From NCBI GenBank assembly GCA_008632985.1, contig QPGO01000121.1:186001-250000 (forward strand): a stretch of 64,000 bases of DNA. The letters run 5' to 3'. Positions 8,701 to 64,000 of this stretch are shown one piece after another. A program made the position numbers and the translations under genes. The notes below the pieces were generated by a model. It searched no databases and was not told where the DNA came from. It was given only the letters and a program-made list of their open reading frames with translations. Within the stretch, counting starts at the first letter, position 1, and each line of letters begins with the position of its first letter. This stretch comes from Psammoneis japonica. Lineage: Eukaryota.

Positions 8701-9850
8701 GAGATGGTCACTGCAAACTGGTTTGCACTTGTCTTGCTGCCATTGTCACCTCAGAACTTCATTCAACAAACAAAAAACCCGGCATTTCAACAGCCTTTGA
8801 GGCCATTTGCACAATTGCAGAGTGCAGCATGGAAAACGGGCAACCTCTTTTTGATGCCTGGGTTTGGTTGCAATGCAAGCTGTGCATTTTTTTCTTTTCA
8901 TGACATCCCAGAGATGGTCACTGCAAGCTGTTTTGCACTTGTCTTGCGCTGCCATTGTTGTCACCTCAGAACTTCATTCAACAAACAAAAACCCGGCATT
9001 TCAAAATTGCTTCATTGGCACTGCCAACTGATGCTGCATTCTTCAACCCTTCTCCTCCCCTTTCCCATGCAATTTTGTGTCTGATTGATTTTAAATGCAC
9101 AAAACAAGATGCTGCTGCTGCTCCAAGAGACTCAACCAAGTTTGAAGAAGGAGGAAATGTGCTCTTTTTAAGACAAAGCCACCACAAGCATGGCCCAAGC
9201 ATGTCATTCTCTTCTGTTCCACCCACTTCTCTGACTTGGGCACAGCCCATTTTTTCATTGTTCTTGATCAAGGTCCCAACAAAAAGAGTGTGCTCTGACC
9301 CTCCTCCTTGCTGGAATCTTTCTTGTTCTTGCCATCCACATGTGAGTCAAGAACTCTGGCCACAAGTTGGTCAGCACCGTTCTTGGTGCTGATGCCCAAC
9401 AGAGCTTGAAGCACGGTCATCAGCAAAGTCCATGGGACCACAAAAGAGGCACAGTGCAGCCACCTGTGGCTGCATTTTTTGCCAAGACTTGTGCCACGGC
9501 AATCTCAACATCGCCCCATGTGCAAGAAGAGAGTGCTGGCCAGTGCCATCAAGGTTCTGCTTTGGCCAGCCAAGTTGCCACTTCCCAAAATTGGTTTTTG
9601 CAGGAACAGCCCCGCTCGCAGATGCAGCACATGTCATCATCATGGCGACCGGCTTTTTCCTCGTCTTCTCCTGCCTGTTCATCATTGGAAGTGCACGCTT
9701 GGTGGGGGGGATGGCTGTTTTGGTGGTGCATTTCCATTTGCTCTTGCCACATCTTCCACCAAATCTTGGACTTGATCAAAATGCTGTCCCACCAAAATCC
9801 AGAGTCCTGTCCGCAATTTTGTGAATCTCCACACACTTTTGAGCATGCAT
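5790..9850. mobile_element. Decayed, unclassified repeat/transposon block, TpA- and CpG-depleted
   Basis: Abrupt switch to TG/CA-rich composition, almost no TA, few CG; only Cys/His/Gln-rich spurious ORFs; no confidently recognisable protein motif. Confidence 0.6.
8166..9003 (+). repeat. Tandem repeat, 4 x 209 bp
   Basis: Unit start gcctttgaggccatttgcacaattgcagagtgc at 8166, 8375, 8584, 8793; copies nearly identical. Confidence 0.95.
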
Positions 9851-10032
9851 GAACTTTCCGTTCAGTGTCAATGAACGCCTTCAGAAATGCATGGAGTCTC
9901 GCGACCGAGTTTCACGCCGAGCAACGCGTGCGATGAGAGGCCGGATTTTTGCTGCCGCCGGCGCGGGCGGCGTGAGACAAGATGTTGCGGGATGCGGAGG
10001 CTACAGTTGTGCACACTTCAGCACCTCACACC

Positions 10033-19444: not shown

Positions 19445-19895
19445 GTGCGAGGATCACCTCTCACCATCTCTGCTCTAGGTCCTGCTGGCAGCTAAAGCCA
19501 CAATGCCTCCTCCTCGCGTGTTAGGAACCTACGAAGTTCAGACAGCCACTCTGGCATCCACTTTAGAGAGAGCGACAAGCAGCCCAGTTACAAGAGAGGG
19601 AAAGAGCTGTTGCAAACCAAACAATTTTCAGCACAGCACACAATCCACCCCCAACCAAACATTTTGCGTTTGGGTGTCTTCGAGATGCGCGGATGGCACA
19701 CCTCCAGCATTGGACTGCACAGCTCATTTCTGATGCCCACACATCTGGCTTCACTCAATGACACCAGCACTGTGCCTGGTTGCCTGCAAGAAGCAACCCA
19801 CCAATGCGCTGCATGCAGGCGGATCATGTGGATGATGAAGCCGCTGTGCACTCGGGTCTTTCAGGTTCAAGGATCACCTCCACTCATTGCTTGCC
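19445..19895 (-). pseudogene. Duplicated fragment of the RBR last exon/3' flank, hypermutated
   Basis: 19565-19813 aligns with 31702-31953; 19851-19895 aligns with 31621-31666; same orientation. Confidence 0.85.
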
Positions 19896-19899
19896 AGCA

Positions 19900-21740
19900 G
19901 CTTGGTTGCTTGGTGTGGCCGAATCAAGAAGCAGCTGCCAGTGCACTGTAACTCAACAAGTGATCATTGGGCAATGAAGGAAAAAAGCTCAGGGGGGGCG
20001 CAATTTGGGGGAAGTCTCCACCAGCCAGCAGCTGGCTAAAGAACCTTGTGTGGAATTTGTGCTGGGAGAGTCTGTCAATCTGTGCATCAGGGGGGTTTGG
20101 TGAATGCAGGACAGAATTGACATCTTTTGTGTGCATGAAAATTGCACTGGCAAAACCCCCAAATGCACCACTGATGGGCAGACTTTTTTCAGCCAGCACG
20201 CTGATGCTGGCTGGAGATTCCCCCCAAATTCAGTTTAGTTGGCAGCATTTTGCTGTGTGCATTTCTGCAGTGCAGGGCAACCAGCCATGGCCAAGCATCT
20301 CTTTTCCATTGTCAAGCAATTTGATGCCTGACAGGCTTCCTTTTGTGTTCATGTTGTTTTCATTGGCCACAATTTGATCACAATGCCATCATTTTTTGCA
20401 TCTCACGTGTTTGTTTTTCATTGGATTTTCAACAGCACCACAGTCCACAATCATGGTGGGCATGATTGCTCGCATGGGTGCTCTGCACAAATGATGTCAA
20501 AACACACAAGCCACAACAAAAGGGCTGCTGCAACAATCTGGATTTTGTGTGTCACGTGAGAGCAGCACAAATGATGGCACTTAATTTTCAATGTTTGAGT
20601 CCAGATGTTCTTGATCCATGTCTCATCACAGGTGGTGTGTGGCATTCTTCTTGGCCACAGACACATCACATGCATGTTTGCACCAAATGTGGTCATGTTT
20701 GTTTGCAAAATTGCCTCTTTCTCTGTTGGCAATCATTGATGTGTGCATCAGCACCAAATGACTTCATGGCACAGAGCTTGCATGTGGAATTTTGTGGGCC
20801 CAACATCACACGGAGCCCCACCTGCTGGAGAACTGGAACACTTCAGCAAATGGCATCACACACCTCTCAAGCCATTGGCAAATTTTGAGCTGCAAAACTG
20901 CTTCAAAATGAGCTCTTTCAACTCTTGTGTGCACAAAACAGTTGAAATTGATTTGCCTTTTTAAGACAATGAGGGAGACAACTGCATCAGGAAATTTTGA
21001 TGCAAATGCTTGAGCACCATTGCATTGACACCATTGTCATGGCACACCACAAAAAACACATTTTGCTGCCAACCTGTCAGCATTGTTGTGACTTTCAGTC
21101 TGGAAAGTGACATCAAGTGTTTCCAACAATTAAGAGAAATTGCACACAGAGAAGTCATTTCCGCAAAATGAAGCCATCTTGTTTGGCACATTGTCAGGTC
21201 TCCACATCAATGGTGTGATGCATTTTTGAGTTTGTCCACAAGTGCATCTTCCCATTGTCACTCACAACAATGCACCAATTTTGGCAAGCAGCACCATGGG
21301 GAGAAATTGCTGGTGCCAATGACCTCTTGTTGTTGCACCAATGTGCTGGAGCCACATGCACTTGCTCTGTGTGTCAACATTTGTCAACCACACAGCACAA
21401 ACAGCACCATCACGAGATGCATGAAAGGTGTGCTAAAGGACAAGCAGGAGGTGCCGGTGCTGTTTCTGCCAGTGGTGAAGATGAGCAAAGACTCTTTGCT
21501 GAACTGCTTTTCTTGAGAATGAACACCTTGACAAAAATGAACTGACTCTGAGATGTGGATTGAGCATGCTCAATGGGGCAACAGTGCTCCCAAAGCATCC
21601 GCATCAACTCAAAAAGTGCCACAAACAATGGGGGTGAATCAGGTGGGTGCAGGATGCTGTTGAAGGAATGACCTCTGAGATTGAGCTCCTTGAAAAACTG
21701 AATCAAGAGAACACACCAGCTGATCTGCCAGAAGCTTGTT
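19900..21740. mobile_element. Decayed, unclassified repeat block, TpA- and CpG-depleted
   Basis: Same composition signature as the other decayed blocks; no confident protein motif. Confidence 0.55.
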
Positions 21741-24596: not shown

Positions 24597-25299
24597 CCCA
24601 TCCCCACCAATTGCCTGTCTCTAGAATCAGATCACCGCAAGAAGTCGTACGAGCAAAGCGACACCAGTCGCTGGCATGCAAGTCGCAGAGTGCGCTGTGA
24701 CTCCTCTTGGCATGCATGCATCACAAGCTTGACAACTTTTGGTGTTTGTCCGCCCTTTTTCAACTGAGTGTCGTTTTGTCTGATTTCTCAAGAGTTTTTT
24801 GTTTGTTGGTTTGTGCAGAGAATGCACACCATGATGCACACATGGGATCAACAAAAACACCCTCCATCATCTTTTTTTGCTGACACAGAGGCAATCAAGC
24901 CTGACCACACAATGTTGACTTTGCCACACACGTGTTTGAAAGACACGCACAAATGTGTTCTTCTTGTTGCAGGAAGAATTGCTGCTGATGTCGCTTTCTG
25001 TCATAAAAGACTTTGGAACAGTGATGCCTTGGGACAGCAATGCTGCAAACACACAGCCATGAAAATCATGGCGATTTGGGCAGAACTGACCAACAGTCAG
25101 ATGCGCCCACATCACACCATGAGTGAAACCCCGCCAAATTAAACAAAAATGGTGCACAGAGTGTCAGTGTTGGAATCAATGCCATGACCCATTGTAACAC
25201 CACCTTTCCACCACTGTCACTCTGCCACCTCAGCTTGCTTGTCATTGCCAGCACTGCTGCAATTTTGCAAGCAAATGCTGTCCAATTCACTCTGTGCAA

Positions 25300-26210
25300 A
25301 AGTCACAATGGAAATGTCAGAAAGGGGGGAGATTGGCTCTGCTGTTGTGCAGCAAAGATCTTTTCTGAATGAGGCCACAAATTGGTTTGCAGCCTTGGCT
25401 CCAGTGCTGAAGATGTGCTGTGGACCTGACCCACTTTAGCCCATGTGTGAAAGTGCTTGCACCGACTTGACGACTTGTGATCGCTGCTTGACTTTTGATT
25501 GTGTTCCAAATGAATTGCCCATCAATGTGGAGCCATGGCATGCTTGCTGCTGGTTGTGTGACCAAGGAAATGGGAAGGAGGAGCAACAAGCAAGTGTCGT
25601 GGCATCCTGGTGTCCTGCTCCCCACCTTGTTTGGTCTTGTGGGTGCTGGGTGCTTTGTTCCCGAGTGAGGAGGACAAGCAAACAAGAACTCCAAAAGAGT
25701 GTCATCAGAGAAACATTCCAAATGATGTCAGCAGGGGCAGAGAGGCACTGCATTGAATGGCTTGCCAATCTGCCTCACCAGATGAAATGTCTGCAAAAAG
25801 AACGAGAATGTGAAGACTGCACTCATCATGTTGGGAGCTGCTGTTCTTTTGGACAATCGCCCATGATCCATGATGTGGGTGGCCCCCTTTTCTTTTTTTT
25901 GCCCTCCCACCCACCCTTGATGTGGTGGAAACTTTTCACTCATGGCAACCTCCCAGAGCAAGGAAAGATTGGCTCTGCTGCTGCACAGCAAAGATCCTTT
26001 GTGAATGAGGCCACAAACTCCCTGGTTTGCAGCCTCAGCTCCTGCGCTGAAGACATGCTGCAGGCCCTGACTTGACTTTTGATTGCTGATTTGCTTTTGA
26101 CTCTGTTCCAAATAAATTGCCTGTCAATGTGGAGTCATGACATGTTTGCAGCTGGTTGTGGGACCGAGGAGACAAGGAGGAGTTGCAAGAAGCAAGTGTT
26201 CTGGCACCCA
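25300..26210 (+). repeat. Diverged direct duplication (~25300-25610 vs ~25940-26210)
   Basis: gattggctctgctg…cagcaaagatc…tgaatgaggccacaaa…tttgcagcct at ~25331 and ~25967; many mismatches are reciprocal TG/CA. Confidence 0.85.
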
Positions 26211-26214
26211 CTCT

Positions 26215-29200
26215 GTGTTCATTTTCTCAACAGTCATTTTCATTTGTTGCATCTGGCTTCTGTTTTTGGGTGAAGCAATTTCTTGTCAGCAATGCACTGG
26301 ATGTCAAATGTTGCATCTCTTTCAAAGACCAGTTGTCCTGGTGTGGCTTGCACCATGGCACATGACATGTCTGCTGAATGCACTGCAAAGGCCCCTGCTT
26401 GCAGCATTCCAGCAAAAGGATCCTCAGCATCCAGAGGAGCATTTTGTAAATCAAGTGTGCACATGATGTTTCCCAGCACTTGATGCACATGCTCAACTGT
26501 GGCATTTTTTGTGAATTTGGCGTGGTTGCGGGTTTGCATTTTGTGCCGTGGTTCTCTTTAACCATCTTTTCAAACTGGTGTCTGATGAACTCACTTCCAC
26601 GATCATTGGGTGATTGATGACAGCCAAGGGAAACCACTTGGCCATGTCTGTTTGAGCAGACCTGCAATGGTGTTGTGGATTTCTCATTCAAAATTTCTGC
26701 TGCTTCAACCATCCAGTTGCTGGATCAATCATTGTCAAATGTTTCAGGATTGATTTTTTTGTTTCTGCCCTTGCAAGGCACTTTGCATGGTCCAACAAGA
26801 TCCACAACATGGTCTGTGCCATGGCACTGATTCCATGCACTTGGGAGGCAAATGCCCACATTTCTTGTTTTGTTTCTTCTTGAATTTCTGCATGTCTCAC
26901 ACTTGGACACACATTTTCTCATGTCTTCCCATGAGGCAGGCCACCACAGGTGTTGTGAGATTGTCTCTTCAGCTCCATTTTTTGTGCCAGGGTGAAGAAG
27001 GCACACACGATGCCCATCTGTTGCTGTTTTTTGTAATGTCTTTGGAACAATGATTTCATCTTTGTGACATGTGAGCAACTGGTCTTGCTTGCCTCCACAA
27101 AAAGTCTTTGCATGACATCATGTCCTGTCTGACAATTTGGAGAGAATGTCTTCATCCCATTTTGTTCAGCATCAAGAATTTTGTGAGTCAATGGACAGAC
27201 ATTGTTTCAGGATTCATGTGTTGTCTTCTCAGCCAGTTCTTCAGTGCTGAGATTTTCCACAGGTCCCATTTTCTTCATGTCAAGTCAGCTGATTGCATCT
27301 GCAACAACATCAGCCTTGCCCTTGAGGTGAGCTGTTTTTGGGCTGCACTCTTCTGTCATTGGATGCCAATGCATGACTCTCTCTGTTGTGAAGTTCTCAT
27401 GAGCAAGATTTTTGTGATCGTGTGTGTCTTTAACCAACTGTTGGCCAAACCATTTTGTTTGTTGTTGTGGCTGTGGAAGGCAACAGGTCAGTTGTTCTGT
27501 GTGACAACTGCCCCCAATTGAGAATTGATTGCATTGGCATGTGTCTGAAAGGGTTCATTGAAATGTTGGTGTGATGATGATGTGCCTTTTGACACAATTT
27601 GCTTCATGTTTTTGAAGGCATGCTTGCTGATGAAATGCTGCAATTCCTTTCAAGTTGTGGGGGTTGCAATTGCTTGAACCACCACCTCCACTTTCTCAGG
27701 CATCAGTTGAAATGCCATTTTGGGTGATGTGGAAGCCCAAGCAATCTGCTTCAGGCTTGGCAAAAATGACTTTTTGGCATTGATCTTCAACCCAGCTTGT
27801 TCAAGCCATGTGAATGCCATCTCAAGCTTTCTGAGGTGATCATCAAAGTCACCTTTTGTCAGGCACAGCATGTTGTCATCACAAGTTCTGATGAACTCCA
27901 AAACTGCCACATGCTTGCTCGTGGGTTCTTGAAAAACATCCAGGACTCTGCAAATTCCCGCGGGGAGTCTGCAGCATCAATGCTTGCCCCGTGGCATGAT
28001 GATCATGTGCAAGCAATGTGCATGTGGTGTCAACTTGACATGACAGCATCCCGTGTTCGAATCAAGTGAGGTTGCATGCATGGAACCTTCCAGGTTCTGT
28101 GGCATGTCCTGAGCATTGAGCAAAGGGAACAGAGTGCATGTTGACCTCTCACTCAGCTCATGGAAATTGGACAGAAACCAAACTCTGCCATTTTTCTTTG
28201 GTTGAACAAACTTTGGAGCTGCCCATTCAGAGTGGTTTGCTTTTCTGAAGACCTTTTGCTTGCATGATCTTTCAACTTCCTTTTGAGCAGTCACTTCCAA
28301 GGCTCAGAAAATGGTTTTGCATGATGGTTTGGCACCCATCTTCAACACAAGATCAACCAGTTTCCTGGTCCAATTGCCTGGGAGAACCATCAAAAAGAGG
28401 TTCAAATCTCACATTGTCAAGGCCAGCAGCATGACAGCTGGAATCAAGATTTTGTTGATCCTGTCATTGAAAATGTTCATGGCATGTGATTCCTCAATGT
28501 GATTGGCTGTTGGCACAAACACTTTGGCATTGAAGAGTGCATCAACATTTCTCACAAGCAGTGAGGCCGCATCTTCCAATTTGATTTCTTCATTCTTAAA
28601 ATCAATGTGATTCCAAGACTGCTCATTGGGTCACATCCCATGATCATGTCACAGCAACTTGAAGAAGTGGTGGTGTCATTCATGTGCGCTGTCTTTTCAA
28701 TCAACTTGTTTTCATTGAAATTGGGTGAAAAGAACTGTGCTGCACATCGCATGTCAGTTGTGAAGAGCCCACCCTTGGTTTCCCAAGTTTGGGTGGCAGG
28801 TTTCTTCATTCTCAATTTCTGCTTAACTTTTGCACAGAATTGCAGAGAAGTGTCCATGTGGTGATGACCACTGGACCAGCAAGCATTGCTTTGACCCTTT
28901 TTTTGGGTTTCCCAATGTCCAGCAATGTGCAAGACTCCTTGACAGAAGCTGGTCATTCTCTGAATCACTGCGCAAGTCAATTTTTCAAATTGGCATTTTC
29001 CTTGCTGAGGGCATCTGAGTCATGTTCCTCATCCTTGCATTCTTCATCATTTGTAAGGAACTTGCCTTTAGAGTTTCTTTGACTCCCTGAGCAATCATGG
29101 TGTTCAGCTCTTCCTTGGGAGTGGCATTTTTAGCATCATGATGAGACCACATGTGATTGCCATTTGAACATTGCTTTTGGGTTCCATTCAAAGTTCCCCC

Positions 29201-29800
29201 AATGTTCTTTTGCAAAAGACCTTTTGGAGAATGCAATTGAGACAACAGATTGTCCAGATGCAACCAACATTGAAACCTTGTGTGTCAACATTGTTGGTTG
29301 ATTGTGCGTTTGCATTTTTTGACATCCGATTGGCTCTGTGTGACTGATCTGTCCTTTGCACACATCCATGGTTGTGGTGTCATTAACACACATGCAACAA
29401 TGCACAATTGCAGCTGAATGTGCACATTTGTTCTTGCTTGACAATGCATGTTGCATGGTGGATGCAGACACATGTGTCATTCTTTTTTGTCGTCATTGGC
29501 CATGCAGTGGTTGGTGTGTTTCTTAGAAGCTTTGATGGCACATGGGCATGTGGGCATGGGACAAATCTTGTCTTTCAAGTTCCGCACAGTGTGTTCCAGG
29601 GTCACATGGTTCTCATGAACATTTTGCACACAAATGTGCACAACACAATTTGTTTAAATTGTCAAACGGTCATCAAAGCTCAAACAGTCATTGTGTGTTT
29701 GGCCCAATTGCAACAAGAATGCTGACAATGATTGCACACATGACAATCTGTGTGGTGCAACTCATTTGGAGGGTCACCAAATGGTCGTTGGAGCTCAAAC
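26215..29800 (-). mobile_element. Ty3/Gypsy LTR-retrotransposon remnant (gag-PR-RT-RH-IN)
   Basis: RT: SEWAAPKFVQPKKNGRVWFLSNFHEL and EFIRTCDDNMLCLTKGDFDDHLRKL…AGLKINAKKS; IN: HPG…ETISQHLWWP…CETC, LTMIDPATGW, TPGQLVFERD; RT before IN = Gypsy order. Confidence 0.9.
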
Positions 29801-31915
29801 AGTCTTTGGATGTTTGGTGCCAGAACACTGATTGTGTTCACACAAAGTGTGTGCACTGCAATTTGTTCTGAGGGTCAAGTGGTTGTCAGACATCTAATGC
29901 TCACATGCTTGTGCTGTTTGTTGCACATTTGTCCCATGGTCAATGCAATTGTGGTCATGTGGCCAGTGTTCTTAAGATGCAGGTGTCTTCTGGCCCAATG
30001 AATGTCACTTGGAGTTCCACCCAAGAGGGCTGGAGTGCATCCAGCATTCTCCAGAAGAGATGTGTCCTCCCCAGCAGCAGAAGCATTGGCAGGGGTCAGC
30101 ATTCTCCAATGGAGCAGTGCCCCTCTCACTGTGAGAAAGGGAGGTGCTTCAGCCACAGCCACCTGGAAAAGAGCAATGGCATGGCACAGCTGGAGCTGCT
30201 GGGCTCCACAAAGAGATGGATGGGCAGAACAACCAGCCACATGGGTCATCAGTTGTTCTCCAGATGAAGTGCCCCAGTGGAAGGTGTTTTTACAGCACTC
30301 ATGGCATTTTGAAGAGCAGCCCTGGTGCAATGCAGTGCAAGTCGTGAGCTGTGATGGATGCATCAGAGGGTGCTTCAAAAGACAGTGTGATGCTTTGGAA
30401 CATGACAGCACACCCTTGTTGACTCAGTGTGAATGTCAAGTTGCATCATCACATCTGCAGAGAGACAAACAATTGTGCTCATTTGAGCTGCACCAAAGAA
30501 CTTGCATGTTGACAAGAGTCAACATTCTTTGAGTTGGGCAGTGTGAACATCAGGTGTGAAGTGAGCAGCAAAGTGTGGCTCAAATTACAAAACTGTGTCA
30601 CAGGTGAGGGAAACAAAAAGCAGCAGGCTGTGAGCACAGAATTGAACAACTCTGATGACTTGCACATTGTGCGCAGCCTTCCACCACACAATCAATTGTT
30701 TTTGGGGGGGGGATCAATTGTTTTGGGGGGGGGGGGGGGGCAGTTGCATTCCTGCCATGTTGCACCACTTTGTGCTCTGCCCAACCTCTTCCCACTCTTC
30801 AATGTCACCCAACTCATCACAATTTTTAACTTCATTTGTGCCAGTCTCTGCAGCCCAGCAGCACCACAATTTTCTGCAAGTGTGGGAGACTCCTCTGGAG
30901 CCAAACATCCAGAAATGTCACTGGCAGCAATGTGCTCATTTCATGTTTGAGGCACATGAAGCTGGTTGTCAAAGCAACCCAAACTTGTCCTGGATCATTT
31001 TCTTTGCAAGTTTGCAGCTCCAAACATCAGTGCAAGTTCACACAAAAATCTCTTTGAATGATCCTGCAGCTCTGCCCTCCAAGCTGTCAATTTTTGCTCT
31101 CTCACCCACAGGGCGCTCCTTTTTTGAATCTCTGATGTCATTTTTCTGTTTCACCAATGTGTTTTCTACACACTTTTCTGGCCAGGCAAGCTTTGAAAAA
31201 AATCTGGCAGCACTTTGCATGCTCCCTCATGCTTTGTTCTTCCTGACCAACACAATTAGAAACTGCACTGCAGCAAAATAATCAGAAAGAAACGCTGGCA
31301 TGCTGACAAGCACAGTGGCAGAACAGCCTGTTGGATGCTTCCAGCTGCAGGCAATGTTGCTTTCAGATCCCCTGGGGGATGGCAAACCTTGAGCATCTGT
31401 TGCCTGCAGCTGGACGATGGTTTTTGATGTGCTGCAAAGAAAATTCCTTCCAATGCTGTCGGAGACAATTCTCGCGATGTTGTTGCATCTGAGAAAGGAA
31501 ATCAGAGATGTCAGAAATTAACGACAAAAGTTTTACAGATTTCTTTTTCAAGATTTCCCTTCTCACGAAATTTCCGCATGCGCACTCTCTAGAGAGGGGT
31601 ACTCCCTACTCTACCTACTCCTCGGATCTTTCAGGTGCAAGGATCACCTCCGCTCATCGCGTGGCCTATGGTCAGTTACTCTCTCAGACATTCATTCATT
31701 CGAGAGAGGGACAAGTAGCCCGTTTACAAGAGAGTGAGAGAGCTATCGTAAACAAAATAGTTTTCAAAGCAGTACCTAAACTACACCCCAAACACATAAT
31801 TTGCAAGTCTTCGAGGAATACATTTATAGTATGTTGTATAACCCCAGCGTTGAACTGTACAACTCATTTCTGCTGTCCAAAGATCTGGCTTCATTCAATA
31901 ACACCAGCACTATGC

Positions 31916-52245: not shown

Positions 52246-54838
52246 AATTAGCAGGCATAACTGTCTCGTACTGCAGCAAAATTACATATCTTTGGCATGC
52301 GCCTTGTAAAGATAGTCTGTTAGACTACACTGATTCAGCATGTTCAAAATGAACTGAGTCGTAATCCTTGTTCACTGTTCGTATTTTTTCATTCTAATGA
52401 ATGTTGGAGGTCGGGCAATTTTCTGAGAGAGGCGAGATGACAGCATCGTGCGTACCGTACGATGTACAGCACTACTCTCTAGCTAGTAGAGAGTGCTGTG
52501 TGTATATGTTTTTTACGTCGTAATGTTTGCCGTCGACAAAAGCTATGAACTTCCCGCCTGCCACTGGCACTTGCAACTGCTCGGTTCCTTCGACGGAGCC
52601 GTCAAGAAGACAGACAAAAAGAGTAGCATGAACGACAATCTGAAAGCTTCACGCATGGCATGGATCCCGCACAGAACAAAATCATTGGCTCTGATGACCT
52701 TCCTGTTCCTGACAGCGTGGGCAGAGTGTTTGTGTCTCATCCAATCACCTTTTTGGCACTCCACACTGCAACACATGGCCGCATGACATTTGCTGCACTG
52801 CAGTTTTTTTTTTCAAGTTCCTTCTGACAGTGATCACACTCCAGATGCTCCTCCTTGCCAGCCTGCAGCATTGAGAATTAAATGTCTTTGAGTTGGATGG
52901 CCTGATCCAGCAGATTGTTGGCATGGTTGTGGTCAAAGAAGAGCTCCCAAGCCAGCTTGCAAGCCACAAAGAAAAGCTTCTTCAGGTGTGCTGGTCCATG
53001 CAGCAAAGCATGGTTGGAACATCTGGATTGCGGGAAACACAAAGAACCAGATGTGTTGAAGAAAAGACACTTTGGCTCCAGGCTTGGCTCACTGCCACAT
53101 CAACCCCTGACCAACATGCACACAAGAGCAGTTGCAAAGATGGCCGCAGCACAAGGCATCAAAGATTTTGCATTTGAGGGCAAATGTGGAGACAACCTGC
53201 ACAATGCTGATCAGACTGCAGAAGTGGAAAGCAACAACGATGAAGAAAATGAACTCAGAAGATGATGACCATGAAGACAAAAAGTGGCCTCTGATGAAAA
53301 GTGTGAAGAAGCAAATGAGATCCCAGCCAATGAAAGATCCAGCCCTGATCAACAGTGCCAGAGCAACAAAATTAAGAACGAGGATCATGATGACTGCAAC
53401 AATGCACCAAAGAAAACAAGGAAAGTGAAGAGCCAGAAAAAGACAAGAAACCCAAGAGAACAAAAGATGGGAAGGAGAAAGACCAGTGGATGAGGCAACA
53501 GCTGTGACTGGCAGAAGAGCCAGGTGTGGCAGAGCCTTCCATGCTGTGCACATGTTCAGAAACACAAGAGCACATTCTGAAAGAAGAAAGTTCAATTCAC
53601 AGCAGTGGCAGACACCACAAAAGTGAAGCACAAGCAAAACAGACTTGAAAGCTGTTGCCATTCACAATGAATGTGAGCCCCAATTCAGAGGATGACATCA
53701 AGCATGATGCAGAAACAGCAATTGTCAGCCAACTCCAATCCAGAAAGGGCACTTCCTTTGACCAGCAGCATTTGTTGCATGAAGACCTAAAAGTGTTTGG
53801 CCAGAGGGGGTTGTGACACCTCAGAGAAGGAGATGAAACAACTCTGCAACAGGGTGTGCTTTGCACTGATGTCAGTTGAATGCACAACTCCAACTGAGAG
53901 GACTGTCAAGGCTGTGATTGCATTGACATTCTCAACAAAGAAGCAAGATGGTCGCATGAAAGGGTGAATGGTTTGCGATGGAAAACCAGCTGCAGAATGG
54001 CCAGACAAGGATGATTCAGCCAGCCTGATGGCCAATGACAGCCATTGTCGACACTGTGGAAAAGTGTGATGTGATGAACGAGGATGGACCAAATGCACTC
54101 ATTCCCAGACATCAACCCCAGAGTCCACCAAGGAGGGTGAAGACCAGAAAATGGTGAAAGTTGCAGGAGTGTTGTTCAACATGCTGGTGAGCATTGATCT
54201 CAACCCATGCAAACCACACGTGGTTGCAGAACAGGAGAAGAGAGTCCTCTGTGTCCAAGTCATCAGAGCCACACATGGCATGTTGGTCACAGCTCCACAG
54301 CAGTGCAAGCCATTTTGCAAGGACCCAGAGAAACTTGGGTTCAACCCTTCAATCCATGCATTGCCAATTGAGTGGTCAGCAGTGGCAAGCAGCACGCTGC
54401 ACATTTCCATCATGTGGATGACCCACTGTCAAGCCACACGAACCCCCAAAAGCAAAAAATGACAAATTCTCAAGCTGGCTTGACAAGATGTGCAGAAGCC
54501 CTGGCACAAAGTTGTTGTGACATGAGGAAAGAAGCACAACTGCCTTGGAATGGTCCTGGACTTCAGCCACAAGGGCAAGGAAAAAGTCAACATGACTGAC
54601 TGCATTCTCACAAGATTGTCAGTCAGCTCCCCAAAAGAGATCAAGAGTGCGGATGCTGCCATGATGCCAGCTGGAGAGAACCTGTTTGATGCCAGTGGCA
54701 CGAGATTGCCAACCAACAAAGCAAGGATGTTCTGTGCATGGGTGGCCAAGGGACCATTCGTGTCCAAGAGAGGCTGCACGGGTGTGCACCCTGCCATTGC
54801 AGCATTGTGCACACAAGTCAGAGAGCTGACCAACAAGG

Positions 54839-55023
54839 TGACAGAACACCAAAGGGGAATGAGGACAGCGGTGTGACAGACTCCCCAAGCAATGTGACTG
54901 CAACAACATGAGCACTGGCAGAAAGAAGTGAGAGGCAGATCTCAGAGAGATCTGCTCGTCCATCTGAATGGTCTGGTCATCATCCATGCACAGTCTGTCC
55001 ATCACAGGACAGACAGGCTGACA
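54839..55023 (-). repeat. 3' LTR of Copia B (185 bp)
   Basis: tgacagaa…ggctgaca; adjacent to PPT; aligns to 59015-59175 with a 24-bp indel. Confidence 0.92.
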
Positions 55024-58000
55024 CCCTCCCCTGATCTGCAATGTCCAAAAGCAGAGAAGACAGTGCAGATCAACCCAAAGAACAGGGATGATGCAAACAG
55101 TGAGACCAAAGGACACAATGAGTGTCCAAGCCCAACACGCAACAAACGAGTGGGCAACACGCAGCAGGAAGGCTGCCGCAAAAAAAATGTCAATGGTGGT
55201 GTCCCATCATGTGTCAAGCATGGCGAGCATTGAGTGCCCATCCCAGAGCCTTGGTGAGGTCATTGCTGGGATTGATGATGCCAGGGACATGCGCGCAACA
55301 ATCTTGCTCGCTTCCTTCCATTCTTGGATTGTGAAGAACTGGGTGTCATGTGATGCAAGCACTTGGTGGGAGTGGAATGGTTGATGATCTTGATTGCCAA
55401 TTCATTGTCAATGCACAAAGGGGTTGGCTTCATTTTGGGAGAAACCCAATTCATGGAGAACATGGCAAAGACAAAGGACATGTTTGGCAGCAGTGCCAGC
55501 AGCACAGAATTCCACTCCTGCAGAACTTGCAGTGGTCACCGATTGAGTCTTGCACCAGAAGGAAATGGCGGCACCTGCCAACATGCAAGCACAACCCACC
55601 ATGGATTGATGGTTGCAAAGGTCATTGCCATGTGCAGCATCCAGGAAAGCAATGAGTTGATGGTCACACTCAGGGATGGGAAATGATGGAAGAGTTGGGT
55701 CAGCAGTCAATCGTTCATGTGGACAGGCGGGTGGACTGGAGTCATGCTTGCAGTTCAGTTCCCAATGCTCGGTTTGCCAAAGACACTTGCAAACACCCTT
55801 CGATGCATCACAATCACTTCAGCAGGACAGGTGGAAAACTTGGACAAGGCAGTGACAGCATGCCCAATGTCCAATCGGCACACAACATGTGCGTGCAACA
55901 ATTCACCAAGGAAGGTGCGGCATCCAAAACCAGCAGCCTCTTCAAGCTCCACATGCTCTGGTGCACCCTCAGCTGGGCTGACAGCAGTGTGCAATTCACA
56001 GATGGAATCAACAGGGATCAGAGCAGCCTTCAAGTCATCAGCAAGTTCCTCAGCAGTCGGTTTCACCCAACCATGCCAGAGGCACACCTGCTCAATGTAA
56101 CTGTGGACAGCAATGCCAAGAGAGTCATCACACTGGTGCATGTCCACACCATTGAACTCTTCAATCAGCCCAAGACACTTGAGTGGCAGAGTGGTTTCCG
56201 ATGAAAGTTGGAGGGTCTTGCCAATCTTGTCACAGATGCGTCTTGACCACACAGGACTCTTCAGGACATGCAATCAAGAAATCATTGACCTGCTGACAAA
56301 GCAACAAAATCTTGTGTCCTTCAAACACAGCAGAGCAGATGCACTTGTCATGCACATCATTGCAAAACAATGGGGTGACATCCAACAAAATGCTGTTGAC
56401 ATGGTTCTCCCAGAGCACGCCGGCTTTTGGGTGTTCTTGGAGGGCATGTTGCATCGGCAACACCGTGCTTCTATCCAGTTCAATGCCAAACCGGGGCTTG
56501 CACCACATTGTGTGCGCTTCATCTGTGGCAACACAGATGGGAAGGGATGGCTGGGGACAGTGCACACAGGCATCACGGGCATCACCTTCAAACACTGGAC
56601 AGCTCACAGCAGCCGTCAAAGCAAAGAACATCCGTTGGACAGGTTGCTCAACACAAGATGAGTGCGTTGAATGTGGATGGTGGAGAACAGATGCTGTGTG
56701 TGGAGAGCCATCACAACATTGATGAGAACGTCATGTGCCATCATGCTTGAGGTCATGTTGCCAATGTGGACAAAGTGCAACAGTGTCCTTGGGGGGCTTG
56801 ATTGGGGCACCAAACGCACCCAGTTCATGGAACTGATCCAATTGCTTGAACTCACCCACATGCCATTCAGGCCATGTGTGGATGGCTTCTTGAGACAATG
56901 GTGGGTGAAGGCGCCCAATGCATGGATTGTTGTTCAAGACAGGACACTCATGAAACAAGTGTCTCTCAGAACAAACAACACACAACTTCTTGGGTGCCTC
57001 CTGTGGAGCAGTCTTCAGCTTGCAGATGGGGAAGCTGAGCAGACATGATGAAAGATGATCTTCATCTGCAGATGGCAGATCCATGCCAGCCAATTTGTCA
57101 CAAAAGACATCAAAGGTGCCATCCTCTGGATTGTCTGCATCAGTGTGTGTCTGATTGGAATCATCTTCAACAGGAGGAACATCTGGAACAGCCAAGGCAT
57201 TGACATCAATGGCTGCACGATGGGTGTCCTCCTGATTGCGGTCCCATTTACAACATGAGTTGCGAGGATTTGCATGAGTGGTGACCGAAGGACCATCAGG
57301 TTGACAAAGAAAGTCAGACAGTGTCTCAACAATCTGAGCATCCATGTGCTTCTTGAGCACAGCCGGAGACTTCTGTTCATCACGTGTGGCGTGGGGGATG
57401 AGAACTTGGAGCATTTGGTGTTCTTGATGAAGACAGGCATCTCACATGGGTCATCCAATGTGGCGCCCATGTCAAAGACACAAGCACACAACTGCAGGAA
57501 ATCTTTGAACACGATGTGACAGTCAGTCAATGACAGGTTGCCTTGAGTGGGACAGGAGTCCACTGAACCAGCAGCTTCATTGTCAAAAGCTGGGTTGTTC
57601 TTGTGTGGGATCTGCTTGAGGGCCTTGCATCCATTGCCACAGCATGAGGCAACAATGCAGTGACACTTGCTGTTCTTGGGGAACATGCCCGCCTTGGACA
57701 GAATCTTGTGAAGAGAACTCTGAGCTTCCTTGCAGTGAACATGCGTGCGTTGAGGCAGGTTGTCATCCTTGTCATTGCCAATCGTGAAACCTTCTCACCA
57801 CCACAATCCTTGGCGAAGCACCACACAGGGTGGATGCAGTGCCCAGAATCAAAAGAGTGACTTTGGAAATTTTGATGCCATGCCCATGTCCCAGCAGGAG
57901 AGTTGTCATGACATGCTGGAGATTCCCTGAACAACATCTTCTGATCGGGAGTTGAGCTCATGATAAAGAGTGTGTCATCATTGAGAATCACACGCTCTGA

Positions 58001-58610
58001 GGCATCAATGTGGTGACAGCATTCATGGTCACAATGGACCAGCGAACTCTTCAGGGTGACTTCTCTGCATTCCTTGTGATCACATTGTCGCAAACCTCCT
58101 TGGGCAGAGTGTTGGGATTGAAGAGATGTTTTGATGTTGTGGATGATGTGGTGCCTCCTGATGTCTTGCCAGCAGCAGTTGAAGGCGGAGCATTGTTCAA
58201 TCCAAACTTGTTGAGTGGTGCCACTAAATCATTCACACCAACAGCTGCAGATCCTGCACTGGTCGAGGATGAGGGTGCAGGGGTTGTCTTTGGCTTGTGT
58301 GGGGTTAAAAAAAACTCACTCCAATCCCTGCAATTCCATTGCATGTCAGGATCAACATGGACATGCTGCATCAACATGACAATGTACAAAGATTGTCCAT
58401 GATTCTGAAGAGTAATTTTGATCATGGAAGAGAGAGCTTCAGGAGTCAAGCGGATTGTGTGGAGCTTGTCAGGGTCAACAACTCAAAGAGGTGCTTGATC
58501 CACAATTGTTTTGGCAGACTGCATGTTGGCAGGGTCTGTCATGCCAGGTGGGATTGCTTGATTGACAAGACAATCATGAAACAAGTCCACAATGTTCTTC
58601 TTAGGTTGAG

Positions 58611-58688
58611 CATGCTTGGGGTCTTCAAAGAATGGATCCAGATCAAACATGCTTGGGGTCTTCAAAGAATGGATCCAGATCAAACATG
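58611..58688 (+). repeat. Perfect 37-bp tandem duplication inside Copia B gag region
   Basis: catgcttggggtcttcaaagaatggatccagatcaaa at 58611 and 58648. Confidence 0.95.
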
Positions 58689-59014
58689 GAGTTCATGCAA
58701 AGCATGATCAGGGGCATGTGGAGATGTGGCATTGAGACATGTGGTTGGAACTCACAACAGATCTCTGCAACAGATGCAGAAGCGGCCTTTGCAAGGTTGG
58801 GAGATGCCATGGTTTTACCTGGTGAAAACATTTTTGGTCATGCACACGCAGAAGAAATCTGGCATGTTTCTATGAGCATGAAAAATGCCGGGAAAGTGAG
58901 AAAAAAATTGTTTCAGGAACAGAAGATGAGGCTTGGTTGATTGGCTCACAAAGCAAATGAATTAAAACAGAAAGCATGGTGCAGAGTTCAGTGGCACAGA
59001 GTGAGGCTCCAACC

Positions 59015-59175
59015 TGACAGAATGCCAAAGGGGGACAAGGATGGTGGTGTGACAGACTCCCCAAGCACTGGGACTGTGATGACATGAGAGCTGGCAGAAA
59101 GAACTGCTCGTCCATCCAAATGGTCTGGTCATCATCCATGTGCAGTCTGTCCATCACAGGACAGACAGGCTGACA
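59015..59175 (-). repeat. 5' LTR of Copia B (161 bp)
   Basis: tgacagaa…ggctgaca followed by TSD caagg. Confidence 0.92.
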
Positions 59176-60312
59176 CAAGGATTGGGGAAAGCTGGCCCAC
59201 TGCATCAAGCACCTGAGTGGGACATGAAATGAAGTCGCTCCACTGAGCACAAAGAACCTCCAAGCAATCACATGGCATGTGGGTGCACCATTTGTGATGC
59301 ACCTTGATTTTTTAAGAGCCACACAGGCAGAACTGTGATGGCAGGCAATGGAGCAGTGTGGGCTGTGTAAAAATGACAGAAGCTCAATGCCCAAAGCAGC
59401 ACAGAGGCTGAGCTTGCAGGAGTTGACATCCCAATGACCATGATTCTGTGGACAAAGTTGTTCATGGAGCACCAGGGGTGCCTGATTGACAAGAACATCA
59501 TCCTTTCCCAGGATGACCAAAGCACCATGCTGTTGGAAACAAATGGGCACAGGAGTGCTGGAAAGCAGTCCAGAGCACTTGGCATTTGGCACTTCTTTGT
59601 TGCCAGCCAGACTGAGAAGGGCAATCTCAGAGTGCAGTGTTGTCCAACCAACGACATGCAGACTTGATGACCAAGCCATTGCAGTGCAAGAAGTCATGAA
59701 AGTTCAAATGAGCCATCTCATGGGCTGTCAACTTCAAGCATGACAGGAGTGTTTCCTGTTTGTGACATCCTCAGAGGAGAGCTCAGAAGATGTCAAGAAC
59801 CACGTGGTTCAACCAGCCACAATTTGTTCCGGCAATGTTTTGTCATTCTTCAGAACAACCATCACCCATCAAGAATGAGACAGACAAGAATGAGAACAAC
59901 ATGCTGCACAACATGACAGCGCAGTGGTCAAGACCACTGGGGTGAGTTTGCAAGACTGGCAAGCATGACAAATGAGAGAAAACAAGAAATCCAAGATGAG
60001 GAGATCTGTGTGATGCAAGATGAATTGAGCTGATGGCTCACTGGTGGAAAGAGACAGTTGACTGTTGACCCACACCTCCATTGCAATGTTTTGGATGTGC
60101 GCCAGCAGTTGATTCTGTGTGCTGATGCCCCATGTGTGCACTGGGCGCTGAAAAAAAGATGTGTTACGACTTTGTCGTTGTGAAAATTATGAGCTAGTTT
60201 AGAGTAGAGAAAATGGGATCGTGCGAATAGGGAATCTTGCCAAATCCCTATTCGTTCGCATTTGGATCGTATCAAATCGATCGTGCGTTCGCATTATGGA
60301 TCGTGCGAATCA

Positions 60313-61106
60313 GACCCGTCGCAGTCGTGACGAAGGGGTGTAATTCGGGGTGTAATTTTGGGGTGTTTACACCCCTAAAAAAAAATTACAGCCAACAATT
60401 ACCCGTCTTGAGGCATGTAATTTTTGCCTGTAATTTTTGGTAAGTGCCTGTAATTTTTCGTACGAAAACAGACTCATCATCGTCCATGACGGCAACAAAC
60501 ATCAGAATGTCGAACAACAATGGCAACCAACAATCAACGACGAACTTCAACCAGCAAGAGATGCAAGAACTCGTTGATGGGGAACTATTTTGATATATTT
60601 ATGAAAGAAATAACGGCGAAAAACGATGAGATTGCCATCAACGGACAACAAAATGAATGCAAGTTCATGCCATTTCAGAAGAAAAACGCGTCATGTGGTC
60701 GCTGAAACCTTGGCTATGGATACAATAGTAACATATGATGTTAATCACGTTATTGTAAATGTACTAGACTTGTCAGAACAATGATTTGATATGCGTAAGG
60801 TCGCAGCGGAGCCGCCGAACGCCATGGTGTTTTGATGCTGTCAATAGAATGTTCAGTTTCGCGTACAAATAAGTTAATTAAAATTAGAGATATAGAGTTA
60901 TTCCTGCTTTGTTATCAACAATTTTTGAGGAGTATATATTCAATGAATATATCATTCCTCGCAGAATTACAGACATCTAATTTCACACTCTCGCAGTCGT
61001 GAGAAAATCGGGTGTAATTTTGGGGTGTAAATTCGCGCGATGCGCGTTTTTACACCCCCAAATTACACCCAGAATTACACCCCAATTTCCACGACTGCGA
61101 CGGGTC
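60313..61106. mobile_element. Non-autonomous TIR DNA transposon (MITE; PIF/Harbinger-like by 3-bp TSD)
   Basis: Left end gacccgtcgcagtcgtg, right end cacgactgcgacgggtc (17-bp perfect inverted match, ~55 bp imperfect with ggggtgtaatt subrepeats); TCA on both flanks (60310-60312, 61107-61109); no transposase ORF. Confidence 0.85.
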
Positions 61107-61109
61107 TCA

Positions 61110-64000
61110 AGCCATCACGCGCCATGCACGAGTGATGTCATCGTGTGGAATCACGCTACCATCGTGGGCCAGACGACGGGCTAGTGTGCTTCACACGGAT
61201 GCTCTCTCAGCATCCTTCTGGAATTGCCTGAGACCTGGAGCCACGCCCTCCTGTGGTCGTGCTTCCCAGGTGTGTGTTGACAACACTGCGTTGCCACGCA
61301 CAAGAGGCTCATGCACGGTCTCACCGTGTTGTCCAGTGGCGAGGCACACTGCACACTCCCCCATGATCAGGGCCGTTGAGTGACAGAATGTCTCACTGGT
61401 GATGGGGTGCAATCTGCCGTAGATCACACGTGTCTGTCAGCGCTCCGTTCTGGACACGCAACGTGCCGTTGTCACACACACGGACAACTCTGGCGGGTCC
61501 TGCATGGCTGTCAGAACCGCACTTGGAGGATTGTTCCTGTTTGATGAGTGCCAATTGCCCCATGGCATGTTGATGCTCCTTGCGTTTCTGATTTTCACGC
61601 TTGTTGTTTAAGTGGACAAGCTTCTGCTTTCTGGTTTCTGTGTGCTTCCACTTGGCACGATGAGCAATGGACAAAACCGCATCGCGTCCGAAGACCAATT
61701 GCGCTGGACTTGCACGCGTGGTCGCATGTGCCGCAGCTCCAACAGCGAAGGCTGCTGCGGAGAGGATGCCACTCCATGGGTCATCTTCATCCAGTTCCAT
61801 GTCCTGCACTGAAAAGGAACGCACCATGTCACCAAGTGTCTGGCGCACACGTTCCACCATGGCATTTGCCTGTGGACTCCGTTTGCTTGTGGGTTTCTTC
61901 AAAATCCCACAGTCATTTTTAATCATCGGCTGAATTCTGCCATAAATTCTGTCCCACGGTCATAAACTGCCTGGGTTGGCCACGGATGTCTGCATGGCCA
62001 CGTTTGTTCCACGACGTTTGCTGCGACGTCTGCGCGTTTCGCAGACACTTCTTTAATCTTGAACCACCCGGTTGCTGGGTCAATCATTGTGACTGCCCAC
62101 AATTGCAAGGTGTCCTTTCCGCGTCTTTGAATTTTACATGGCCCTGTCACATCTGTGCATGGAGTCTCCCATGGAATTATCTCTGCGACCTTTTCTGGCA
62201 ACTTCCCATGATGCTGCGTTCGGCGTTTTGTCTTCTGGCATCGATCGCACTTGGCGCACGTAGAATGCACCGTAGACCTCACACTGGGCCAACAGAAGTG
62301 CTGGGCAATGGATGTTTCCGCACGTGTCTCACCTGGATGACACAGTGTCTCGTGGCACCATTCAGTCAGCGGAACCTGTGGTGCTGCGATTTTGTCCTTG
62401 TGACAGATTAACTGTCGTGATGACCCTCCCCCATGATGCGCACGAATGGAGCAGTCAGACGAGTCCTTGGCTCTTGAGAGCAGGCGCTTGTCCTTTTGTT
62501 GTGCTTTTTGAATGCGCTTGAAGGTGCTGAATGAGCCTGCCACCGCGGTCCAGTTTGTCTCAGCCGTTGAATGGCTTCGCAGACGTTTGCAGCATCGACT
62601 GTCAAGCAGAGCACTGCTGGCGCCACCATCTGGCAGTGCCTCAATGGTTTGAGTCTTGCCCTTGCCATGTTTGGCATTCACAGCTGCAAACAAGATTGGA
62701 GTGAGATGAGTCTTTTTAACTCGTTTGCGGGATTGGCCTGCAACACGTGTACGATGGTAATCCAGTTGTTCATTTGTACATTCATCTGATGTGCCAAAAC
62801 TGCCTGTGTCGTGTCGGCCCCCTTCTCAGGCGTCCGAATCTTCGGAATCACTTGAGTTGAGGTCGCGGAAGTGATTGAGCTCCTCCTCGCGGGCCTTGCG
62901 CTTTTTCTGAGCGTTGGCAAAGAACTCCTTGACCTTCGATCCGACAAGAGCATCAATGTCTTCCTCATTCCGAGGTTTTGCATCAGGCTTGCCGCCTCTG
63001 TCATTGGAATGTCCAGTCTTGACACGTTTCACGTGGTGCTTGAGCTGACGGCAATCCTCCGTATGATGTCCACAGTTGATCCTGCGCAGCATGCACGACT
63101 TCTGGGTGTTCCGTTGGGTCGTGATCAACGACTCAGGATTGTCCGTTCTACGTCCCCGCTTACATGGAACCTTGGCATGTTGGTCCTGGTTGCCTTCGGC
63201 AAGCTCGACCTGCTCGATGCGCTCGCAGAACTGCACAAATTCGGCGACAGTGTGCGCCAACGGGTCAAAATTCTGTAGCGTCATGAACTTCTGCCATGCG
63301 TTCGGCACACCGCACTCGAACATGTCGCACAGTTCGTCATTGGGCAATGGTGCCGGTGTTTCTCCATCCTCCGTCACGGGTGGAAACTGAGAGATGTGGC
63401 CGTTAATTTCAACAGCCCTCGCGACGTAGTCACGAGCAGAAACCTCTGCGGGCTTGCGCATGAAGCGCCGCAGATGACGCTTCTGCAACAGTGCCGCCCT
63501 GTGTGGGAAGATACTTTCCTTTAGCTTCGCGATGCATGCTGCGCACGTGGCGTTGGTTTGGCATGCCTGCTTGTCAGCGGCATTGTCAAATGACGTCAGA
63601 GCATCGCCCTGTGGCAGGTCATGCACAAGGGCAAATTTTGCTGGCCCGGTCGTGATGTTTTGTCCTTCATGCGCGCGATCCACGTTGTGCAGAAAGATTG
63701 GGAGTGTCTCGCATGTAGCCGCAGAAAGGTGCGGGATGCCCATCTCGTGCGTTGGACTGTCCGGATCAGCGGGGTTGTCACGCAGCTTGAACGTCTGGCA
63801 CTCGCCCTGCTGCAGCTCTTTCTTCTCTGGCCGTGCGAACGGAATCGGCGGCTCAACCCGCTTCTTCATGGTCATTTTAAGACTGTTCGGTCCTGCCAAC
63901 ATTTCGTAGTTTCGTTTCTGTAGATTTCGTCACCTCGCACAACATGCGGGAGCAATGTCACTGTGCCCTGCGCATGCACCAGGCGCTGAAAAAGAAGATG
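61110..64000 (-). mobile_element. Ty3/Gypsy element C, internally deleted (gag, PR stub fused to IN; RT/RH missing), runs off window
   Basis: gag 62826-63902 (QKRHLRRFMRKP, FCERIE); PR ALPDGGASS; IN HETLCHPG…CDRCQK, VTMIDPATGWF, YDRGTEF, PQANAMVER; PPT-like ATGGGGGAG (minus) at ~61356-61364 before probable 3' LTR. Confidence 0.92.

Follow-up and report, generated by a model that had tools for sequence, protein, structure and literature searches.

In Neurospora and other ascomycetes, repeat-induced point mutation (RIP) changes CpA to TpA, so that TA becomes enriched and stop codons are made. In mutation-accumulation lines of the rhizarian alga Bigelowiella natans, de novo A:T to G:C changes at TpA only have been reported in a preprint whose available text proposes adenine deamination, with ADAT2/3-like enzymes as candidates, and describes TpA-poor, CpA- and TpG-rich clusters that are enriched in reverse-transcriptase and transposase domains (Mettrop et al., bioRxiv 10.64898/2026.01.13.699255, 2026). 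Neither CpG nor diatoms come up in the available part of that text. Work on a model diatom places CG methylation that depends on DNMT5a mainly on young transposons (PMC9998398), and our full-text literature search did not find TA erasure described in diatoms. Here we analyse 64,000 nt of Psammoneis japonica DNA (assembly GCA_008632985.1, contig QPGO01000121.1, positions 186,001 to 250,000 of the forward strand; hereafter the window), which has 48% G+C, long host open reading frames (ORFs) and an intron-poor eukaryotic look; one host protein, looked up in a protein atlas, matched a generic MBOAT family only. At the right end of the window (60126–64000, minus strand) lies a copy of a Ty3/Gypsy-type long terminal repeat (LTR) retrotransposon, here called element C, in which TA is mostly gone and CG is mostly kept. 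The copy is dead and carries an internal deletion, and we conclude that its lineage probably underwent two mutational processes of very unequal speed.

The first-pass annotation, made from the letters of 61110–64000, had described a younger Gypsy element caught mid-process, with TA mostly gone and CG still abundant. Counting bore out this composition. Between 61110 and 64000 there are 29 TA (observed/expected ratio, o/e, 0.198) and 185 CG (o/e 0.87), with CA and TG in excess (o/e 1.61 and 1.49). Across 278 host windows of 2891 nt each, TA o/e ranged from 0.47 to 0.82 (median 0.60) and CG o/e from 0.82 to 1.20 (median 0.97). Element C therefore lies below all 278 host windows for TA (Poisson P of 29 or fewer TA under the host median = 3.7e-13) and within the host range for CG. 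The annotation had further proposed that older elements lack both dinucleotides, and this also held: four older blocks (6000–9800, 19700–21700, 24800–31400 and 52700–60125) have a TA o/e of 0.03–0.05, a CG o/e of 0.12–0.19, and CA and TG o/e values of 1.8–2.0, with borders that are sharp to within about 100 nt. TpA loss is confined to transposon DNA and spares the host windows (TA o/e at least 0.47 in each); the exceptions are an insertion resembling a miniature inverted-repeat transposable element (MITE) and a 145-nt LTR patch, both inside element C, which kept their TA.

This pattern shares with RIP a dinucleotide-specific transition hypermutation of repeats that kills transposons and spares neighbouring genes. 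Its direction, however, is the opposite: TA is depleted (o/e 0.03–0.20), CA and TG are enriched (1.5–2.0), and no stops arise, so that the TpA enrichment and CpA/TpG depletion typical of RIP are absent. The closer parallel is with Bigelowiella. Both features of that system, a TpA-restricted change giving TpG or CpA and confinement to repeat DNA, are found here; in both cases the transitions fall on either strand of foreign or repeat DNA and run counter to the usual GC-to-AT bias (bioRxiv 10.64898/2026.01.13.699255, available text). The two cases differ in target and degree, since the Bigelowiella changes concern integrated giant-virus and virophage DNA in which TpA is ~1.8-fold depleted, whereas those described here concern LTR retrotransposons with near-complete erasure in old copies. 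They also differ in what can be observed: for Bigelowiella, the text available reports a measured de novo rate, whereas here the process is known from sequence comparison, and how it relates to CpG decay can be seen.

Loss of TA changes the Tyr codons TAT and TAC to His codons (CAT, CAC) or Cys codons (TGT, TGC), and the residues found at Tyr positions of element C fit this expectation. We defined Tyr columns as those in which at least half of the homologues have Tyr (6 columns in gag, from 10 homologues, and 11 in pol, from 40). At these 17 columns element C carries His nine times, Cys six times, Phe once, Ala once and Tyr never. A leave-one-out control over the 50 homologues returned Tyr in 401 of 474 cells and His or Cys in 8 of 474, with a maximum of two in any one homologue. 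The family consensus at these positions is thus Tyr and not already His or Cys. Gag retains a single Tyr in 348 residues, compared with 7–10 in each of its 10 homologues. The first-pass annotation had given this single gag Tyr correctly; its lengths of 358 aa for gag and 177 aa for the integrase tail were approximate, the counted values being 348 and 182. It had also put the Tyr content of the integrase tail at zero, which is right for the in-frame residues but overlooks a single Tyr in the overlap, out of frame, with which the tail begins. Counts over 820 codons of element C are 3 for Tyr, 40 for His and 30 for Cys, or 0.37, 4.88 and 3.66 per 100 codons, respectively, against 2.71, 2.15 and 1.40 in 6089 host codons.

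Other codons show the same trend. Of 34 conserved Leu columns 5 now hold Pro, of 19 Val columns 3 hold Ala, and of 23 Ile columns 5 hold Thr or Met; GTA is absent while GTG occurs 18 times, and CCA makes up 23 of 45 Pro codons in element C compared with 72 of 284 in host ORFs. Alignment with the 40 pol homologues upheld the earlier proposal that motif changes lie in TA context, as NDCG replaces NDYG, ALPDGGAS replaces VLLDSGAS, APH replaces TPY and IAAP (with its Val to Ala changes) replaces IVVP; in gag, element C has KRHLRR where homologues carry F or Y. Both strands are affected, as judged from nine His versus six Cys at the Tyr columns and from 8 TG versus 6 CA sites in a comparison with a related copy. 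The TA deficit of element C is mutational.

CG sites had a different fate. Conserved Arg is kept at 27 of 31 columns of element C, with one change to His; none of the 17 conserved pol Arg columns has turned to Cys, His, Gln or Trp, and 50 of the 62 Arg codons are CGN. Set beside the 15 of 17 Tyr columns that became His or Cys, these counts agree with the earlier claim that TA conversion is separable from CpG decay and apparently faster or earlier. Loss of both marks an older Gypsy pol region elsewhere in the window, where Tyr remains at 0 of 26 conserved columns (His or Cys at 17), and Arg at 6 of 31, with Cys, His, Trp, Gln or a stop at 18. Gly, Trp and Asp, whose retention is independent of TA and CG, are kept at 20 of 20, 10 of 10 and 11 of 12 columns in element C versus 22 of 31, 7 of 16 and 16 of 23 in the older Gypsy, and so element C is the younger of the two. 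The annotation had reached the same relative age, and the Gly and Trp columns support it, but long ORFs, which it had also taken as a sign of youth, are not informative: no TAA or TAG can arise when TA becomes TG or CA, and existing ones turn into CAA, CAG, TGG or TGA. The many spurious long ORFs of the old blocks agree with this. The changes in the old blocks, with CG going to TG or CA and Arg altered in 18 of 31 older-Gypsy columns, resemble CpG decay by 5-methylcytosine deamination; such decay covers only the slower half of the pattern, and in element C it has barely begun (4 of 31 sites) while TA erasure is nearly complete.

Copies of the family were found in the contigs of one public study, in which 4068 contigs showed at least 80% likeness to element C and 837 of these at least 99%. 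No RNA data set was listed as containing the family. Contigs differ from element C by transitions at 383 places and by transversions at 69. One contig of 426 nt (62769–63194) represents a related copy with 19 TA where element C has 4; 14 TA sites of this copy read TG (8) or CA (6) in element C. CG numbers 29 in the related copy and 27 in element C over the same interval, with four lost from element C and two from the related copy. Losses in element C are therefore 14 of 18 sites for TA and 4 of 31 for CG; the equal loss that would have contradicted the first reading of this DNA was not what we found. The ratio of log retention (4 of 18 TA sites, 27 of 31 CG sites) is ~10, which serves as an estimate of the TA:CG loss-rate ratio from one related contig that is not the ancestor. 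Given this ratio and the CG o/e of 0.12–0.19 in the old blocks, essentially no TA would be expected there, which matches what is observed. We infer that a single pair of constant rates fits both element C and the old blocks, and that a burst is possible but not required.

The family is abundant, with a summed contig depth of ~17000 internally versus ~60–70 for single diverged contigs, and contig joints reveal further deletion variants, for example one that skips 63194–63903. Among 15 hand-read sites, a context rule for the TG versus CA outcome (A followed by A disfavoured) found no support, as one or two sites fit and two or three did not. Strand-coordinated clustering was likewise not seen in the hand-read sites, where 7 TG and 7 CA fall into 7 runs versus ~8 expected.

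The TA that survive in old blocks have a distinct context: 54 of 58 lie in TTA or TAA, compared with 588 of 1555 host TA and 14 of 29 in element C, and TTAA accounts for 20 of the 58 versus 3.9% in host DNA. This excess suggests either a flanking-base preference of the mutator or newly made TA. TTAA sites were nevertheless converted in element C, at 4 of 15 hand-read sites. The largest TA- and CG-poor block (52700–60125) shows no detectable similarity to the proteins of the Gypsy family that were compared, and its many long ORFs are spurious, because only TGA stops remain in it. We also considered the bin 9501–10000 (0 TA, 27 CG) as a second stretch with TA gone and CG kept, and rejected it because 17 of its CG lie within one CG-rich 100 nt at a host gene border.

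Element C extends to the left of position 61110, where the first-pass annotation had placed its start, and is nested in an older transposon-derived block that ends at 60125 (Table 1).

Table 1 Features of element C and of older transposon DNA in the window.
Feature	Position	Strand	Evidence
5' LTR, last 37 nt	63964–64000	−	Window ends here; aligns with 60126–60162, homology stopping exactly after GGGCA
gag ORF, 348 codons plus TGA stop, no internal stops, one Tyr	62826–63872	−	Ten homologues, 34–43% identity
Aspartic protease, N-terminal half (ALPDGGAS; family VLLDSGAS), in frame after the gag stop	62523–62825	−	tblastn, P0011 residues 2–90
Internal deletion junction	62522–62523	−	P0011 residue 90 at 62523, residue 698 at 62522; alignment gap
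Integrase zinc finger (H2C2) and catalytic core, first frame	61942–62522	−	PF17921, E 2.1e-09; 55–57% identity to P0011/P0012
One-base frameshift within integrase	61927–61928	−	ORF frames; family variant table
Integrase C-terminal part, second frame, TGA end, no in-frame Tyr	61393–61941	−	ORF frames, alignment, tblastn
3' LTR, proximal part, TG start after purine run	61107–61355	−	Sequence reading; rise in summed contig depth from ~18000 to 48000–59000
MITE-like insertion in LTR, 797 nt	60310–61106		Perfect 18-nt terminal inverted repeats; 3-nt duplication (TCA)
3' LTR, distal part, GGGCA end	60126–60309	−	Contigs join 60251–60309 to 61107–61212; alignment to 5' LTR end
Older transposon-derived block around element C	52700–60125		TA o/e 0.04, CG o/e 0.19
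Older Gypsy pol (protease, reverse transcriptase, RNase H, integrase), old comparator	26246–28821	−	tblastn; column counts

The 3' LTR runs from 61355 to 60126 and measures 433 nt without the MITE, with TG...GGGCA ends. We identified it as an LTR because contigs bridge 60309 and 61107 (three contigs from two public runs, skipping 797 nt), because summed contig depth there is 48000–65000, ~3 times the ~17000–18000 of the internal region, and because homology to the other end stops exactly at GGGCA. When recoded as purines and pyrimidines and compared by BLAST, the 5' LTR end and 60126–60162 are identical at 35 of 35 positions. No primer-binding site was identified behind the 5' LTR. Searches of element C against the remaining window by blastn and tblastn returned no other family copies, only a distant Gypsy integrase (26243–27156) and a repeat of the MITE, and the purine/pyrimidine-recoded BLAST added only the LTR-end match.

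A protein search yielded 413 pol relatives, of which the top ones among the best 120 are ~60% identical to element C over integrase. The closest full-length homologue (P0011) has protease at residues 48–139, reverse transcriptase at 291–450, RNase H at 513–634, the integrase zinc finger at 744–800 and rve at 816–917, and this order of domains places the family in the Ty3/Gypsy type. The order is taken from relatives, because element C keeps only half of the protease and the integrase; element C itself has the TG...CA LTR ends and the H2C2/DDE-type integrase expected of Ty3/Gypsy members. Pfam gave no matches for its gag and integrase tail and no significant rve score in element C, although the homologues aligned to the core carry PF00665. 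The internal deletion removed ~607 residues (1.8 kb), comprising the remaining protease, the reverse transcriptase and RNase H. Five public contigs with a loose end at 62527 run on into TA-containing sequence, and fuller copies of the family therefore exist. At the integrase frameshift, 5272 of 9511 depth units of other copies have an extra T (position 61927). Gag and pol share a frame with a single TGA between them (62826–62828), which fits either expression by stop-codon read-through in this family or a former TAA turned TGA. With its deletion of reverse transcriptase and RNase H, its frameshift and a MITE in its LTR, element C is dead.

Conversion is uneven along the element. The internal region has 27 TA in 2571 nt, 61107–61392 has 2 TA in 286 nt (o/e 0.16), and the final 39 nt (60126–60164) have none. 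An LTR patch at 60165–60309 is unconverted (9 TA in 145 nt), and the adjoining MITE is not TA-depleted (50 TA in 794 nt, o/e 0.71). The MITE carries internal GGGGTGTAATT repeats and is missing from other LTR copies in public contigs, and contigs 80–90% alike suggest that further copies of it exist elsewhere. TA erasure may switch off at the MITE because of a boundary, because the process is patchy in itself, or through gene conversion.

Several observations weigh against the reading of two processes at different speeds. A simple spreading model fails to explain a 145-nt patch and a MITE, both unconverted, that lie between converted parts. Site counts from the family variant table come from the best 40 of 462 rows, chosen by support, and one of the public runs, X1, has 0.44 of the sampled words of element C, as may happen with another strain or with copy loss. 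At least nine sites show that CpG decay has begun in element C, which has TG or CA where at least 92% of family depth has CG; these private losses may be genuine, or may reflect differences between strains or errors of base calling at methylated CpG. Finally, the share in X1 of letters other than that of element C is 0.11–0.49 at 11 of the 14 converted sites in 62769–63194, among the variant rows listed. Most copies thus share the exact outcome of element C, without strand bias, which suggests inheritance from a converted progenitor.

We therefore considered that most conversions in element C were inherited, having arisen in a progenitor or its cDNA in earlier rounds of retrotransposition, after which a non-coding derivative devoid of reverse transcriptase was copied in trans. 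Element C would then record the order of events in a lineage and not a locus caught in the act. This history is possible, if not the one that we favour. It accounts for the majority of X1 family depth matching element C at 11 of 14 converted sites, and it suits a high-copy family (837 of 4068 contigs at least 99% alike) as well as a copy that has no reverse transcriptase or RNase H and in which all invariant Tyr positions are destroyed, as in a lineage without coding selection. Contig depth is not equivalent to copy count, however, and three further observations point to conversion at this locus. The two LTR ends, which are identical at integration, differ at four dinucleotides in the last 26 nt (TG/CA, TG/CA, CG/CA and CA/TG), three of them TG/CA sites, so some conversion took place after integration. 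At 62945–62946, element C has CA where 99% of depth has TG, a case of independent conversion. In the distal 3' LTR, element C keeps ATTATGG where the consensus of other copies, read from the loose end at 61107, has ATTGTGG. Both histories, inherited and at-locus conversion, probably contribute. The phrase "caught mid-process" in the first-pass annotation is accordingly borne out only in part: the LTR differences speak for it, but most family depth shares the outcome of element C at most converted sites, and many conversions may have been inherited.

Returning to two processes of unequal speed, the observed change in element C is A:T to G:C at TpA only; it affects both strands, is restricted to transposons, approaches saturation, and acted in part after integration. 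We propose that the fast process changes the A of 5'-TA-3', on whichever strand, by transition (TpA to TpG or CpA) and has taken ~75–90% of the TA sites of element C. The slow process would be ordinary decay of CpG to TpG or CpA, with ~10% of CG sites gone, and the older elements of the window would represent the end state of both. TA loss may arise from enzymatic deamination of adenine in DNA, with inosine read as G, aimed at repeat DNA after integration, and CG loss from deamination of 5-methylcytosine in methylated transposon DNA. A more specific model, which we offer tentatively, is of a TpA mutator that works in place on integrated retrotransposons, most plausibly an adenine deaminase recruited to repeat chromatin. 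Such a mutator would act at roughly 10 times the rate of CpG decay per site (from the 426-nt comparison) and very roughly 100 times background; its patches of action could end at a foreign insertion, and it would disfavour TTA and TAA and be independent of cytosine methylation. Together with Bigelowiella, it might then represent a 'reverse RIP' defence that is widespread in SAR (stramenopiles, alveolates and rhizarians).

The chemistry could also lie in thymine instead of adenine. If T in TpA were oxidised to 5-hydroxymethyl- or 5-formyluracil and mispaired with G, the resulting T to C change would have the same target and kinetics. 5-Formyluracil does mispair, and the hydroxymethyluracil of dinoflagellates occurs preferentially in TpA. 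Because TA is its own reverse complement, sequence alone does not tell whether an A became G or a T on the opposite strand became C. Nothing in the data favours thymine oxidation over adenine deamination, and we consider the former unlikely.

We think it more doubtful still that one enzyme causes both losses by deaminating A in TpA and, more slowly, C in CpG. TA and CG losses both yield TG or CA and occur in exactly the same blocks with common sharp borders, and the Bigelowiella preprint, in the text available, cites enzymes of the ADAT2 type as deaminating A as well as C in DNA (bioRxiv 10.64898/2026.01.13.699255). But a 75–90% loss of TA beside a ~10% loss of CG in element C is not readily reconciled with a single activity. 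The Bigelowiella spectrum as given in that text is also almost purely A-to-G or T-to-C (210 of 211), with no CG component reported (bioRxiv 10.64898/2026.01.13.699255), and DNMT5a-dependent CG methylation of young transposons, described in the part of the source available, provides an independent cause of CpG decay (PMC9998398).

The pattern resembles APOBEC3 and ADAR editing in being deaminase-like hypermutation of retroelements with a neighbour-base preference. Those activities are strand-asymmetric and take place before integration or on RNA, whereas here both strands are about equally affected and the LTRs of one copy differ. ADAR-like editing of the element transcript before reverse transcription is accordingly very improbable, disfavoured by strand balance: editing of RNA would touch the sense strand only and give Tyr to Cys but never His, and element C has His nine times against Cys six times. 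To our knowledge, ADARs are confined to animals. The preference of ADARs for a 5' U or T neighbour would nonetheless fit, as discussed in the available preprint text (bioRxiv 10.64898/2026.01.13.699255). The weakest alternative is that codon usage or selection against TA, without mutation, makes element C TA-poor by nature. It starts from the general TA-poverty of coding DNA (o/e 0.55 in host ORFs here) and is refuted by three findings: His or Cys has taken the place of Tyr in 15 of the 17 consensus-Tyr columns, invariant positions of the catalytic domain among them; family copies carry TA at those sites; and the TA o/e lies below all 278 host windows.

Together, these data support the conclusion that TA erasure is separate from, and much faster than, CpG decay, and that it is not a by-product of that decay. 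Element C is a new instance of a type of process described in one 2026 preprint (bioRxiv 10.64898/2026.01.13.699255), and it provides a time-resolved snapshot of what is otherwise seen as an end state in old repeats. The process has the look of active, targeted mutation, a defence of the genome that would disable the proteins of transposons as it rewrites Tyr, Leu, Ile and Val codons, yet creates no stops. In such genomes, ORF length and stop counts would misjudge the age and integrity of transposons, and LTR divergence would overestimate their age. Copies like element C, rich in CG and poor in TA, would be natural substrates for asking whether TA erasure and methylation are interdependent.

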